Below, piece after piece: positions 1 through 54,879 of a stretch of DNA of 54,879 nt (within the stretch, counting starts at the first letter, position 1; each line of letters starts with the position of its first letter). A program made the position numbers and the translations under genes. The notes below the pieces were generated by a model, which made no database searches, had not been told where the DNA came from, and saw nothing but the letters and a program-made list of their open reading frames with translations. Source of the DNA: a virus; the IMG/VR virus record IMGVR_UViG_3300045988_121535. The stretch is one strand, 5' to 3'.

Positions 1-110
1 AGGCGGAAACGGGGCTACACTGGCAGGCGGATACGGGGCTAAACTGGCAGGCGGAAACGGGGCTAAACTGGCAGGCGGAAACGGGGCTACACTGGCAGGC
101 GGAAAACATT
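1..110 (+). repeat. 24-nt tandem repeat (aaactggcaggcggaaacggggct-like), about 4.5 copies
   Basis: Direct inspection; same unit as the array at the window end. Confidence 0.9.
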
Positions 111-34827: not shown

Positions 34828-35256
34828 CTAATTTTCGAGAAAACGATAAAACATTTTCTTTACACTATCCTCAGTATTGCCTCCAACCCTTCTTGCAACA
34901 TCAGACCAAGAAAGACCATCAATAAATCTAAGACGGATAATTCGCCTCATGTGGCTATCGTTTATATCTGCTATAAACGCTTCAACTTTGTTTATCGTTT
35001 CCAACAACTCTAATTCAAGTTCGCATAATGTTGCTTTCCTTGAGTAAAGCAACGCTTTCTTTCTGTTATATTCTGGATAGGGGAAGCCCTCAATGACAAA
35101 TGTTTCCAATCCGCCAACTCCGCCAGATACTTTGTCAAGAACCGTTCCTTCCTGCTCTATTTTTATAATCTGCTGTTCAAGAGTTGATATCTTTTCTCTT
35201 ACCTCATCACATTCTTGTTGAAGGTCTGTGTATTGCTTTAGAATTTCCTTTGTCAA
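34828..35256 (-). CDS. sigma-70 region-4-like HTH protein (possible late regulator)
   Basis: RRIIRLRFIDGLSWSDVARRVGGNTEDSVKKMFYRF; N-terminal coiled coil; TTG start. Confidence 0.4.
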   Translation of the reverse strand: MTKEILKQYTDLQQECDEVREKISTLEQQIIKIEQEGTVLDKVSGGVGGLETFVIEGFPYPEYNRKKALLYSRKATLCELELELLETINKVEAFIADINDSHMRRIIRLRFIDGLSWSDVARRVGGNTEDSVKKMFYRFLEN

Positions 35257-37427
35257 TAATATACGCCCCCTCTAAACGGATTTATGGTTGCCTCTACCTT
35301 CGCAATCCTATTTCCCTTTGTGATTCTTACCGCAAAGTTAGAAAATACGTCTGGAACGTCATCAAGCTGTTTCTTGCTACTTACAGAATACCGTTTCAAA
35401 AGTGACATCATCACGCCGTATGGCTCTTTCGGGGAATACATGGATTCATCCTTGAAAATAACGTGCTGCAATATCCAGTTGGAACACTGGAATATCCTTG
35501 CCTCTTTGTTCGTTTCGGTAGGCGTATCTGTAATATTGCAAATCCAACCCTTAGCCTCTACACGTTTATTCACTTCCATAGCAACCCTGTCTCCGCCTGC
35601 GTTTCGCTCAAATTCGCACTCCTGTACTCCATTATTAACAATAGCATTTGCGGCGTTTTCGTACTGCATTTCATAGTCTGCGGTATTATCGCAAACGCAA
35701 TCCACGCAGTAGTAGTCATCACCGTATTTTTGCAGGATTGGCAGGACAAAATAGTCCGTTCCTTTTCCTTTCGTGTCGCACTGTGCAGTGATAATATCCG
35801 GCTCTCCGTGTGGAAGATTGAGGTATCGGCGTATCTTGTCTTCAGGGAAAACCAATCCCTCACGCTCAATAGGCTCCTGCTTATACAGACAACGATAAGA
35901 AATATCGTCCATCAGCAACTGTTGGTCTTCAAAAAATTCTTTTGTAAACCCAGAAAATTCATAATCGAAATTGCTTTCTTGCGTAATCGGGTCAATATCT
36001 GGTACTGCTATGGTTTTAACCCTCGGATTTCCTTCATACATATTTTGAATACGCCCGATAACATCATGCACAGACCATCGTGTAGCAATATGTATTTCCT
36101 TGCAGTTTTTGCCTTCGGAATCCTGTATTTTCCTCTGTCTCGCATCGACTGCGTATTTATTCCACAGTTTATCAAGTATCATAGGGTTCATTGCTTCTTC
36201 GATACCGCCTATCATATCGTCAACAAGCAGAAATTTAGATGCCCTTACTTTACCGGCATTTTTGCTGCCTACGGATGTGCATTGAACAGAAGGGAAGGGT
36301 TTATATTTTCCTACGTTAAACTGCTCCATCTTTGCGTTTGTACTGGTAACGTGTAGGTTTGGAAATATCTCGTTCCATGCGTAATCGTCTATGTTCGTGA
36401 CAATATCGTATACGCCATCATAATACATCCTCGTAATATCCCCACTATGAGAATAAAAGAGGTTAAAGTCTTTCGGAAACCAACCAATGACCGCAGCGTT
36501 GAAAAACTTCTCAATCGTTGTGTTGTGCGTGACAATATAATCATCGGTGATATATAAGTGGCACGGATTATCAATCATGATACACTGACACTCTTCTTCT
36601 CCTTTATACTGAATCGCTCCAACTCTCAGATAAAATCTATTATTTAATGATTTTGTTGTTACAGGAATAAGGTATTTGTATGGATTTACAAGCATCTCTT
36701 TTGTTTCTATTACTTTTTCAGTTGTTTTATTTCCAAAATAGTTGTATCTGACATTCCACAAGTGATTATCCGAACATCTGCATTTTGAACCATCTTCAAG
36801 CGTAATTTCGTATATTTTTCTTTTCCCTTGTGGGTATATGCCTATGATATTTGCAGTTTCTCCATTTCCTGCGATTATTTTAGTTCCGACTTTCGCATCG
36901 CCCATTTGAATGAATCCATCTGGTGTAAGAATTTTTGAATACAATGGCTGCGCTTTCCCAGCGCCAGGAATTAGGCTGATGCACAAAATATCATACCTAT
37001 CATCAATCATCCCTTGTAGTGCATCCATTAGCCCGATTTTCAAAAATTGTTTTCTTCTCGGCATATAAAACCGTTCTTTCGGCTCTCTTTTGTGTTCGAT
37101 ATAACGAAAGAAACTATCGACAACCTTATTCTGTGCTTCTATCAGTAAGACGGAATAAAATTTCTCTATAATTTCATAGCTTACTTTTTCTTTGAAAGCG
37201 TATTTTTCCAAATCCCAAATTGTACCGCCAGAAGAATTAAGGCAGTAGGCTTCAATGATTTCCTTGCACCGCGCGGACAGTTCTAAGCCATAGGCAATAT
37301 CTTTTTCGTTTGCGAACGCCGTATTTGCAGCTTCGCAGTAGGCATCTATAACCTGTTCATTGATTCCATTTGTTTCTATGTATTTTTCGTAGTCCTGTAC
37401 GGCACTTATCAACTCAAAACTTGCCAT
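35253..37427 (-). CDS. terL: terminase large subunit containing a mini-intein in the Walker A loop
   Basis: P-loop split as ISLIPGAGK | intein | TTIEKF; Walker B FLLVDDMIGG; C-terminal nuclease domain. Confidence 0.9.
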   Translation of the reverse strand: MASFELISAVQDYEKYIETNGINEQVIDAYCEAANTAFANEKDIAYGLELSARCKEIIEAYCLNSSGGTIWDLEKYAFKEKVSYEIIEKFYSVLLIEAQNKVVDSFFRYIEHKREPKERFYMPRRKQFLKIGLMDALQGMIDDRYDILCISLIPGAGKAQPLYSKILTPDGFIQMGDAKVGTKIIAGNGETANIIGIYPQGKRKIYEITLEDGSKCRCSDNHLWNVRYNYFGNKTTEKVIETKEMLVNPYKYLIPVTTKSLNNRFYLRVGAIQYKGEEECQCIMIDNPCHLYITDDYIVTHNTTIEKFFNAAVIGWFPKDFNLFYSHSGDITRMYYDGVYDIVTNIDDYAWNEIFPNLHVTSTNAKMEQFNVGKYKPFPSVQCTSVGSKNAGKVRASKFLLVDDMIGGIEEAMNPMILDKLWNKYAVDARQRKIQDSEGKNCKEIHIATRWSVHDVIGRIQNMYEGNPRVKTIAVPDIDPITQESNFDYEFSGFTKEFFEDQQLLMDDISYRCLYKQEPIEREGLVFPEDKIRRYLNLPHGEPDIITAQCDTKGKGTDYFVLPILQKYGDDYYCVDCVCDNTADYEMQYENAANAIVNNGVQECEFERNAGGDRVAMEVNKRVEAKGWICNITDTPTETNKEARIFQCSNWILQHVIFKDESMYSPKEPYGVMMSLLKRYSVSSKKQLDDVPDVFSNFAVRITKGNRIAKVEATINPFRGGVYY
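36522..36953 (-). other. mini-intein (about 144 aa) inserted after GAGK of the terL P-loop
   Basis: Block B CSDNHLWN (TxxH); C-terminal blocks F/G IDNPCHLYITDDYIVTHN followed by +1 Thr. Confidence 0.7.
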
Positions 37428-37531
37428 TAAAAAAAGCACCTCCGCTCAAATAAGCAAAGGTGCAAAAATCCTTTGCCCTCAGATGTTTAGGGTTAGCGGC
37501 TAACTTCCAAATTGTTAGTCGGTAATTGTTT

Positions 37532-39041: not shown

Positions 39042-39133
39042 ACGCCAACAGAGGGATTTGAACCCCCATGTCGGATTCTAACCGACACAATGGTTTTCAA
39101 GACCACGCCGTTATAACCGTTTCGGTATGTTGG
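39042..39133 (-). tRNA. tRNA-Ser (anticodon TGA)
   Basis: Acceptor GCCAACA/TGTTGGC, anticodon loop CTTGAAA, long variable arm, T-loop GGTTCAAATCC; no encoded CCA. Confidence 0.8.
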
Positions 39134-39289
39134 CAAATCCCTGATTTTTCAGTTTTGAGTTTAATGTCAGTCACGAAACCAGAAAAACGGACTGACAGGG
39201 GTTTGTCGATTTTTGAAGGGTAGGTTTTATATACGGTCAGTCAGCAGAATCAATGATTGCGATAAACCACGATACCGAAAGACCGCAAA

Positions 39290-39363
39290 TGGATTCTCTC
39301 GGACTTGAACCGAGGACCGTCCGGTTATGAGCCGGATGCTCTAACCAACTGAGCTAAGAATCC
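39290..39363 (-). tRNA. tRNA-Met (anticodon CAT; elongator type, or Ile2 if lysidinylated)
   Basis: GGATTCTTAGCTCAGTTGGTTAGAGC...CTCATAA...GGTTCAAGTCC; discriminator A. Confidence 0.8.
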
Positions 39364-39546
39364 AGAGTGGGGCGTGATGCCGTTAAAACGCCCCAAATAT
39401 GAAGTTGGTGTTTGGTCTTGTTGCCAGTCCCCATCGGCATACAAGCCAAAAACCCACCGAGCCGTGCGATGGCTCTTAACAGGATTCCCCTAGTGGGTGA
39501 AAGGTTGTGTTATCCATCGGGAAAAATGTCCAAAAACCCGATGAAA

Positions 39547-39617
39547 AGCACCAGACGGGAATCGAACCCGTTTCCGCAGTTTGGAAAACTTCTGTTCTGC
39601 CATTAAACTACTGGTGC
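39547..39617 (-). tRNA. tRNA-Gly (anticodon TCC)
   Basis: Acceptor GCACCAG/CTGGTGC, T-arm ACGGGTTCGATTCCCGT, loop TTTCCAA, discriminator U; one A:G mismatch in the anticodon stem. Confidence 0.65.
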
Positions 39618-54177: not shown

Positions 54178-54879
54178 ATGGGAATGAAAGGATATAAAGG
54201 TTTTCGCAAGGGGCTTATTTGCAAAAGCAAGCAGTACGCAGAGAACACGATTTTTGAAGAAAGCGAAGCTAATATTTGCGTGTTCTGCAAAAATCCTATG
54301 GACGTACTTGACTATTATCCGTTAATTGATAATAACGGCGAAATGTGCGAATTTTCGGAAGTAGAAGCAATGGACGAAACTCTTACAAATGACGAGAAGA
54401 AATATTGCACAAAGAAACTAAAAATCGGCGCAAGGCTGTCTTTAGTAGAATTTATTAAGGCAAGTTTTGACGTAACCTATCGGCAGATTAAAGAAGAAGT
54501 TGATAATGTTTCAGAAAAAGAAAATGTCGTAGACAACGCTAAACTGGCAGGCGGAGACAACGCTAAACTGGCAGGCGGAAACGGGGCTAAACTGGCAGGC
54601 GGAAACTGGGCTAAACTGGCAGGCGGAGACAACGCTAAACTGGCAGGCGGAGACTGGGCTACACTGGCAGGCGGATACGGGGCTAAACTGGCAGGCGGAA
54701 ACGGGGCTACACTGGCAGGCGGATACGGGGCTAAACTGGCAGGCGGAAACGGGGCTAAACTGGCAGGCGGAGACAACGCTACACTGGCAGGCGGAAACGG
54801 GGCTACACTGGCAGGCGGATACGGGGCTAAACTGGCAGGCGGAAACGGGGCTACACTGGCAGGCGGATACGGGGCTAAA
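54178..54879 (+). CDS. tandem-repeat protein, N-terminal Cys-containing domain plus 8-aa A[KT]LAGG[NDY][GNW] repeats; 3'-truncated at window end (continues at 2..292)
   Basis: ATG 54178 after GGGGAGG RBS; open to the last base of the window (234 codons). Confidence 0.65.
   Translation, partial: MGMKGYKGFRKGLICKSKQYAENTIFEESEANICVFCKNPMDVLDYYPLIDNNGEMCEFSEVEAMDETLTNDEKKYCTKKLKIGARLSLVEFIKASFDVTYRQIKEEVDNVSEKENVVDNAKLAGGDNAKLAGGNGAKLAGGNWAKLAGGDNAKLAGGDWATLAGGYGAKLAGGNGATLAGGYGAKLAGGNGAKLAGGDNATLAGGNGATLAGGYGAKLAGGNGATLAGGYGAK
54530..54879 (+). repeat. 24-nt tandem repeat array, at least 14 copies (same unit as at 1-110)
   Basis: Direct inspection. Confidence 0.95.

Follow-up and report, generated by a model that had tools for sequence, protein, structure and literature searches.

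A reading frame for the large subunit of terminase (TerL), encoded by a phage sequence of 54,879 nucleotides analysed here in its entirety (IMG/VR record IMGVR_UViG_3300045988_121535, hereafter the window), carries 144 additional residues in the middle of its putative ATP-binding loop, raising the question of what these residues are and by what route, if any, they would be removed from the protein. On the evidence presented below, positions 36522..36953 (minus strand) very probably represent a class 3 mini-intein within the Walker A motif of TerL that excises itself by the class 3 route.

The Interrupted Terminase Gene and its Phage Context

The relevant open reading frame extends uninterrupted from 35253 to 37439 on the minus strand, and comprises 728 codons when counted from a GTG. 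That figure had been adopted in the first-pass annotation as the length of unspliced TerL, but the likely start codon, the ATG at 37427 used in the gene calls of public assemblies, gives a product of 724 residues. This product was an exact match to cluster P0160 (84 member sequences, 50 contigs listed), and was present on at least 13 contigs of 20–200 kb. The intein-bearing terL DNA was identical in two retrieved contigs with differing flanks, and the identical gene recurs across many samples on phage-sized contigs. Public copies of the precursor are named simply 'Terminase' or 'hypothetical protein', and by analogy with characterised inteins the mature enzyme would be a protein of 580 rather than 724 residues. 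The principal features of the locus are as follows.

35253..37427, minus strand: terL precursor gene, terminase large subunit (open reading frame, identity to P0160, PF22530/PF17289, phrog_38)
36954..37427, minus strand: N-extein, 158 residues, ending ...ISLIPGAGK (sequence and empty-site alleles)
36954..36968, minus strand: PGAGK codons, the last 15 nucleotides of the N-extein and first half of the putative Walker A motif
36522..36953, minus strand: very probable class 3 mini-intein, 144 residues, Ala1 to Asn144 (homology, profile and fold model)
35253..36521, minus strand: C-extein, 422 residues plus stop codon, the remaining ATPase domain and the RNase H-like nuclease domain
36216..36230, minus strand: candidate Walker B motif, LLVDD, inside the C-extein (assigned from the motif)

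The protein with the insertion removed matched phrog_38 (terminase large subunit) at E = 4e-42 over residues 133–567, a span covering the ATPase region, and the C-terminal half of TerL matched the RNase H-like nuclease domains PF22530 and PF17289 of Pfam. V406, D407 and D408 were invariant in the TerL alignment (A3). Downstream of terL are genes for the portal, a Mu F-like protein and the major head protein, and the combination by which a terminase large subunit is recognised, namely a P-loop ATPase, an RNase H-like nuclease and a neighbouring portal gene, was found in full. An integrase and a tape-measure protein are also encoded in the window; the phage is temperate, siphovirus-like and of gut origin, its host is probably a member of the Lachnospiraceae, and a prophage relative of the phage lineage was found in Lachnospira intestinalis. 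A phmmer search of PDB with the spliced TerL returned no significant solved-structure match for the ATPase domain, and the assignment of GAGKTT as a probable Walker A motif draws on the motif itself, the PHROG match and the site preference of the intein family.

Borders of the Insertion and Empty-Site Alleles

Translation of 36522..36953 (minus strand) yields 144 residues reading AQPLYSK...CSDNHLWN...CHLYITDDYIVTHN, the successive pieces being AQPLYSKILTPDGF...KCRCSDNHLWNV...EEECQCIMIDNPCHLYITDDYIVTHN. The insertion lies in frame between the Lys and Thr of PGAGK/TT (a slash marks the insertion site here and below), with the flanking sequences ...ISLIPGAGK and TTIEKF. The claim that these residues split the TerL Walker A motif at precisely these coordinates was borne out by the exact translation, by the phrog_38 match, and by uninterrupted homologues of two kinds. 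The first is the empty allele P0216, a 580-residue TerL on a 54-kb contig, which differed from the spliced window protein at one residue out of 580 (identities 158/158 in the N-extein, 421/422 in the C-extein). The second is the more distant TerL of Dulem virus 39 (PP511791.1), which reads ...SLIPGAGKTTIEKF... and includes GAGKTTIEKF, its BLASTP identity being 77% across the aligned C-extein and 70% across the aligned N-extein. At the DNA level, the Dulem virus 39 junction GGAAAG/ACCACA is continuous, GGAGCTGGAAAG/ACCACAATCGAA corresponding to GGCGCTGGGAAA/432 nucleotides/ACAACGATTGAG in the window, and the site in the empty allele L005 reads GGTGCAGGGAAA/ACGACAATCGAG.

Removal of the insertion restores GAGKTT, as had been proposed, and the same motif is present in both Dulem virus 39 and P0216. 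A shifted splice junction was considered and ruled out, the GAGKTT of the empty alleles being regained solely by excision of Ala1 to Asn144. An in-frame insertion, a conserved site and homologues that are precisely empty at that site, the three features expected of an intein, were each observed.

A search with the whole TerL returned 7872 homologues at E ≤ 1e-30. Among the best 120 clusters, 56 carried a mini-intein (140–144 residues), 53 were empty and at least seven carried a full-length intein, every intein being located at the same GK/TT site.

Homology and Predicted Fold of the Insertion

When compared by phmmer with all PDB chains, the 144 residues matched inteins alone at significant E-values, the top match being the gp41-1 intein (9.6e-12), with the class 3 DnaB inteins of Mycobacterium chimaera and M. 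smegmatis at 1.3e-7 to 2.8e-6. A word-indexed search with the intein alone produced just nine partial matches, and an exhaustive HMMER search of 1.84 billion representatives was therefore required to reveal the family (9395 matches at E ≤ 1e-3, 5813 at E ≤ 1e-10). An alignment of 27 mini-intein sequences (A2) then served both as a profile and as AlphaFold input. As a profile it gave an E-value of 6.5e-21 with gp41-1 and values from 2e-14 to 4.9e-13 with the class 3 DnaB inteins; it contains 12 invariant and 10 near-invariant columns, all of which are intact in the window intein.

The AlphaFold 2 model generated from A2 (pLDDT 92.7, pTM 0.87) was all-beta, and superseded a single-sequence prediction that was unusable (pLDDT 39). 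The best Foldseek matches to the model in PDB were 6riz (gp41-1 with a grafted WCT triplet, vide infra), 6riy and 6rix (the M. chimaera intein MchDnaB1), and 6bs8, described as a 'class 3 DnaB intein' from M. smegmatis; the top 50 were without exception inteins, BIL domains or hedgehog HINT domains, each with a probability of 1.00. The predicted structure is accordingly that of a HINT fold.

By way of comparison, the curated domain models gave sub-threshold scores, both Pfam Intein_splicing PF14890 (E 0.02; 15.1 bits, cut-off 35.8) and NCBIfam intein_Nterm TIGR01445 (E 0.022; 15.7 bits, cut-off 24.5), and were excluded from the evidence. Because both direct and profile-based homology to solved inteins was strong, these models appear to be poor representatives of this subfamily. 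The Hint similarity anticipated in the first-pass annotation was thus evident with solved inteins by phmmer, profile and Foldseek, but not with the Pfam and NCBIfam intein models. With sequence homology, a confident HINT-fold model, a conserved in-frame site and empty alleles in agreement, the suggestion that the insertion is an intein was upheld: it is a HINT-fold intein. A tblastn search with the intein found no second example in the rest of the window.

Class 3 Signature Residues

Class 3 inteins are defined by the lack of an N-terminal nucleophile, by a non-contiguous Trp(B:12)-Cys(F:4)-Thr(G:5) triplet (WCT), and by Thr or Ser at position +1 (Tori et al., PMC2807308). The corresponding positions in the window intein are listed below.

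36954..36956, minus strand: Lys(-1)
36951..36953, minus strand: Ala1 (GCG), a non-nucleophile, read from the sequence
36756..36773, minus strand: block B core S61-D-N-H64-L-W66, from alignments
36762..36764, minus strand: His64, position B:10
36756..36758, minus strand: Trp66, position B:12, the W of the WCT triplet
36582..36584, minus strand: Cys124, position F:4, the C of the triplet and predicted initiating nucleophile, aligned with the MchDnaB1 Cys
36522..36530, minus strand: Thr142 (G:5, the T of the triplet), His143 and Asn144 (terminal, predicted to cyclise), from the sequence
36516..36521, minus strand: Thr+1 and Thr+2, first residues of the C-extein and second half of the putative Walker A motif (GK/TT)

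Block B is the CSDNHLWN originally described, but the 'TxxH' attributed to it actually reads S-x-x-H (Ser61...His64). Cys124 aligns with the Cys in the sequence 'pvrCvevdnpahlyl' of MchDnaB1, and its column in A2 is invariant. The C-terminus of the intein is that expected, His143-Asn144 followed by Thr at +1.

Residue tallies compiled from 196 related inteins, extracted from the 150 proteins best matched by HMMER, confirmed that these positions are highly conserved: His at B:10 (196/196), Trp at B:12 (190/196), Cys at F:4 (195/196), Thr at G:5 (196/196), a penultimate His (192/196) and a terminal Asn (196/196). Residue 1 was Ala in 137 and Pro in 25, while the +1 residue was Thr in 148, Ser in 43 and Cys in five; the insertion site was GK/[ST] in 131 of the 196. 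The window intein has the majority residue at A1, H64, W66, C124, T142, H143, N144 and T+1.

A non-nucleophilic first residue (Ala1), the WCT triplet and Thr+1 are consequently all present. Class 1, which has Cys or Ser at position 1, is excluded because residue 1 is Ala; class 2, typified by KlbA, is excluded because its members have no WCT triplet and use Cys+1, whereas here the triplet is present and +1 is Thr. The earlier suggestion that Ala1 implies a non-canonical, 'class 2/3-like' mechanism can therefore be narrowed to class 3.

Proposed Splicing Route and Alternative Explanations

The class 3 prototype depends absolutely on its block F Cys, for which neither Ser nor Ala is a substitute; in the scheme proposed by Tori et al., attack of this Cys on the N-terminal junction gives rise to a first branched intermediate, followed by transfer to the +1 residue (PMC2807308). 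The crystal structure of MchDnaB1 places Cys124, His65 and Thr143, together with Trp67, in an arrangement resembling a protease triad with Cys124 as the catalytic nucleophile (Beyer et al., PMC7664689). Since all of the class 3 hallmarks are present in the window intein, its splicing is expected to begin with attack by Cys124 on the Lys(-1) bond. By analogy with these experimentally studied class 3 inteins, the order of events would be as follows. The precursor would be translated as a single 724-residue chain with a disrupted ATP-binding loop, in which the intein would fold into a HINT domain and remove itself. With the help of His64, Trp66 (both block B) and Thr142 (block G), Cys124 (F:4) would attack the Lys(-1)-Ala1 bond to give a thioester-linked branched intermediate, from which the N-extein would be transferred to the side chain of Thr+1 as acceptor nucleophile. 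Cyclisation of Asn144 would then free the intein, and an O-to-N acyl shift would generate a 580-residue TerL with an intact GAGKTT P-loop. A caveat is provided by the related gp41-1 intein, onto which W, C and T were grafted with no productive splicing as a result (PMC7664689), so the triplet alone is insufficient as proof of activity.

Of the alternatives, the one that survives best accepts class 3 splicing but regards the intein as retained for conditional use rather than as a purely selfish remnant, with a redox- or zinc-sensitive Cys124 gating DNA packaging. Four cysteines accompany Cys124 in the window intein, two in block B (C58-x-C60) and two in block F (C122, C131), and the likely Lachnospiraceae hosts are strict anaerobes. 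Moreover, N-cleavage by MchDnaB1 is inhibited by hydrogen peroxide (PMC7664689), and the class 3 DnaB intein 1 of M. smegmatis (Msm) is described as reversibly inhibited under oxidative stress (PMC6195587). However, near-identical phages exist that have no intein, one of the 53 empty clusters among the best 120 being listed with 191 contigs, so any benefit conferred by the intein must be dispensable, and such a regulatory role is considered improbable.

A second alternative is an active intein that follows a class 2-like route, Thr+1 attacking the N-terminal junction directly with no block F thioester. Ala1 is common to the class 2 KlbA inteins (PMC2807308), and the class 3 chemistry set out above is argued by analogy. 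Set against this, W66, C124 and T142 coexist with Thr+1 in the window intein, a combination foreign to class 2 with its Cys+1 and lack of a triplet, and the block F Cys that such a route would leave unused is both essential in the class 3 prototype (PMC2807308) and kept in all but one of the 196 relatives; a class 2-like route is accordingly very improbable.

Equally improbable is the proposal that the intein is a splicing-dead relic or a tolerated insertion, TerL being either non-functional, as in a defective prophage, or able to work with the insertion in place. Mini-inteins stand at the end of the homing cycle and may decay, and splicing of the window intein is itself predicted from characterised homologues. 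Nevertheless, the reading frame is open, every invariant and near-invariant family column is intact, and the identical gene occurs on many phage-sized contigs from different samples. The mini-intein is also under purifying selection: comparison with the 90% identical intein of P0164 gave dN 0.051 and dS 0.39, a dN/dS of about 0.13, and comparison with the 142-residue intein of P0176 a dN/dS of 0.19. In P-loop NTPases, a 144-residue domain placed between the P-loop Lys and Thr precludes nucleotide binding, and a TerL retaining the insertion would be incompatible with that function. The same incompatibility has been argued for TerL pentamers (Kelley 2016, PMC5050341). Excision by the class 3 route consequently remains the preferred interpretation.

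Comparison with Known Inteins

A class 3 intein interrupting the P-loop of a terminase is a well-documented combination. As early as 2009–2010, such inteins had been reported from P-loops in phage helicases as well as in terminase large subunits, the latter being listed among the class 3 hosts at that time (PMC2807308). The class 3 prototype, the DnaB intein of mycobacteriophage Bethlehem (MP-Be; Tori et al. 2010, PMC2807308), resembles the window intein in its non-nucleophilic first residue, WCT positions, His-Asn terminus and Thr+1, and likewise interrupts the P-loop of a phage motor ATPase that acts on nucleic acid. It differs in having Pro1 and 341 residues inclusive of an endonuclease domain, whereas the window intein has Ala1 and 144 residues, contains no such domain, and resides in a Bacillota-type gut phage.

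Two relatives of known structure, Msm DnaBi1 (6bs8) and MchDnaB1 (6rix, 6riy), are likewise class 3 mini-inteins of 139–145 residues, His65, Trp67, Cys124 and Thr143 of MchDnaB1 corresponding to His64, Trp66, Cys124 and Thr142 of the window intein. Block F in these mycobacterial DnaB intein 1 sequences shares the pattern xxC(I/V)xxDNPxHLY with the window intein, and E-values between them ranged from 1e-7 to 2e-14 (phmmer and profile). However, the protein they interrupt is a helicase of bacteria and not a phage terminase, identity in structure-based alignments is approximately 20%, and the central linker is different.

With respect to the host protein and insertion site, the nearest counterpart is the mycobacteriophage intein TerL1-a which, by published description, shares both the TerL host and the invariant Lys/Thr site (PMC5050341) but interrupts an actinophage terminase of the terminase_1 family in phages of another host phylum. 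TerL is the commonest intein host in mycobacteriophages, and the Lys/Thr position of Walker A is the 'classic' P-loop insertion; the TerL inteins assayed spliced efficiently in a reporter, TerL1-a falling outside the five representatives (Kelley et al. 2016, PMC5050341). A 2025 survey recorded 287 class 3 inteins in actinophages, mostly in TerL and Cas4 (bioRxiv 10.1101/2025.01.02.630785).

The best solved-intein match in both sequence and structure was gp41-1 (6qaz; WCT-grafted form 6riz), with a target-normalised TM-score of 0.87 and a THN C-terminus in common, yet gp41-1 belongs to class 1, is split in nature, and has Cys1 together with Phe and Asp at positions B:12 and F:4, respectively. 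The class 2 KlbA inteins share Ala1, but differ in their archaeal hosts, their use of Cys+1 and their lack of a WCT triplet. Within the phage collection, the nearest relatives of the window intein were less than 60% identical.

The current understanding of inteins is thus unchanged by the window intein, which adds a class 3 mini-intein from a gut Bacillota phage to a family studied chiefly in actinophages and mycobacteria. Class 3 inteins that combine a compact size with a THN C-terminus have attracted interest for protein engineering (PMC12245125), and the window intein is a candidate tool for that purpose.

Endonuclease-Bearing Alleles and Population History

The description of the insertion as a mini-intein devoid of a homing endonuclease was confirmed: its 144 residues gave no match to LAGLIDADG, HNH or any other endonuclease at E ≤ 1, and in the AlphaFold 2 model the 50-residue stretch between blocks B and F consists of strands and one short helix within a single domain. 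By way of contrast, the same-site alleles P0033, P0048 and P0162 contain inteins of 352–354 residues, with approximately 210 extra residues between blocks B and F at the position of the window linker. These extra residues include two LAGLIDADG motifs (e.g. HPYLLGCLLGDGG and LLRGLLDTDGY) and match Pfam PF14528. A recent origin of the mini-intein by deletion from the full-length intein of the near-identical TerL P0162 was considered and rejected because the DNA identity of the ends was just 69% (N-terminal) and 85% (C-terminal).

Empty, mini-intein and full-length alleles co-circulate in TerLs with 97–100% identical C-exteins. Near-identical phages therefore exhibit the empty, endonuclease-bearing and mini states of the homing cycle, and offer a convenient natural system in which to follow how inteins are gained, lost and possibly moved in trans. 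Comparison of individual alleles further indicated that the history of the intein conflicts with that of its host gene, as judged from sequence identities. P0164 has an intein 90% identical to that of the window (130/144) alongside an N-extein that is 59% identical (94/158) and a C-extein matching at 351/416 residues, while P0161 shows the reverse, the intein being 74% identical (106/144), the N-extein 89% (141/158) and the C-extein 97% (408/422). The three-state allele series, together with this discordance between intein and exteins, is the more interesting outcome of the analysis and its most useful by-product.

The DNA flanking the site exhibited a corresponding discontinuity. Relative to the empty allele L005, the N-extein of the window differs by two nucleotides, both within 10 nucleotides of the site, and the C-extein by 65 of 1269 nucleotides, nearly all synonymous, with six in the first 27. 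Synonymous differences are thus concentrated in about 40 nucleotides across the insertion site, where the divergence shifts sharply. This pattern is consistent with a homing-cycle model accompanied by recombination or co-conversion at the site.

It is conceivable, although on balance doubtful, that the mini-intein is still mobile in trans and spreads between divergent TerL alleles when gut phages co-infect a host: the LAGLIDADG endonuclease of a same-site full-length intein would cut an empty allele, and a mini-intein allele would serve as template for repair of the break. The co-circulation of the three allele types, the intein-extein discordance and the clustering of synonymous differences at the site all lend support to this idea, but an identical pattern would be expected from ordinary homologous recombination between mosaic phages.

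The intein was also found to be AT-rich, its GC content of 34.5% comparing with 41.0% for the host gene, and its GC3 of 0.30 with 0.40–0.44; this places it within the lowest 4% of 432-nucleotide windows. Such AT-richness is a pattern that a horizontally moving element would be expected to show, and a similar GC content, 35.1%, was recorded for the intein of the full-length allele.

Divergence at the Insertion Site

Comparison of the mini-intein allele in the window (36954..36968 and 36495..36521) with the corresponding positions of L005, a DNA record whose empty allele is 99.8% identical, demonstrated that the synonymous differences separating the two alleles were concentrated at the insertion site, with two in the last 10 nt upstream and six in the first 27 nt downstream. 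The overall level of divergence also changed abruptly at the same point, from 2/474 nt upstream to 65/1269 nt downstream. These data suggest either that recombination or co-conversion had its boundary here, or that the target site of the endonuclease has changed.

Variant, Paired and Apparently Split Inteins in Other Proteins

Examination of inteins occupying the orthologous TerL site in two related proteins, P0002 and P0214, indicated that the first residue there is not Ala but Cys (PPGTQK/CQPLYSK, intein boundaries being marked here and below by a slash) or Ser (SQPMYSKV), while the conserved N-terminal sequence of the family is still retained. These variants have a bearing on the relation between class 1 and class 3 inteins.

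Many relatives outside the window (P0040, P0050, P0062, P0068, P0069, P0078 and P0138) contain two or three class 3 inteins, and in several of these a pair of inteins is arranged around a single P-loop and separated by only a few residues, as exemplified by ...THN/SGTGK/A... and ...THN/CGK/AQP....

Five further proteins from outside the window (P0004, P0006, P0007, P0008 and P0009) are metagenomic sequences of ~240 aa. Each starts at its N-terminus with a class 3-type C-intein half (...HKCIVVSDPSHLYxTSNNIVTHN/S) and ends at its C-terminus with an N-intein half (...LLGN/AQPLYSKIM...SDNHLWK). They resemble the central fragment of a gene that has been broken up by two class 3-like inteins, both naturally split; AceL NrdHF (6zgq) is a known class 3 split intein.

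Probable Host and Genome Organisation

The contig L013 (485,898 nt), from the cultured isolate Lachnospira intestinalis CLA-AA-H89B, includes a prophage whose TerL shows 87% identity and lacks an insertion at the site, and further relatives were located in MAGs of Lachnospiraceae, Agathobacter and Faecalimonas, which together point to Lachnospiraceae as the phage hosts.

Both ends of the window (1..60 and 54820..54879) lie within a tandem repeat of ~24 nt (…CTGGCAGGCGGAAACGGGGCTACA…), and have in common an exact terminal direct repeat of 43 nt, an arrangement consistent with a phage genome that was assembled as a circle and opened within a repeat array.

Two further features were recorded:

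39042..39617, (-) strand, three clustered tRNA genes, Ser(tga), Met(cat) and Gly(tcc), situated upstream of the packaging module
34828..35256, (-) strand, 142-aa ORF between terL and the portal gene, with a match to phrog_36

The ORF shares a 4-nt overlap with the terL stop, and its match to phrog_36, 'transcriptional regulator', was recorded at 8.8e-15; the location of a regulator-like ORF between terL and the portal gene is an unusual placement.
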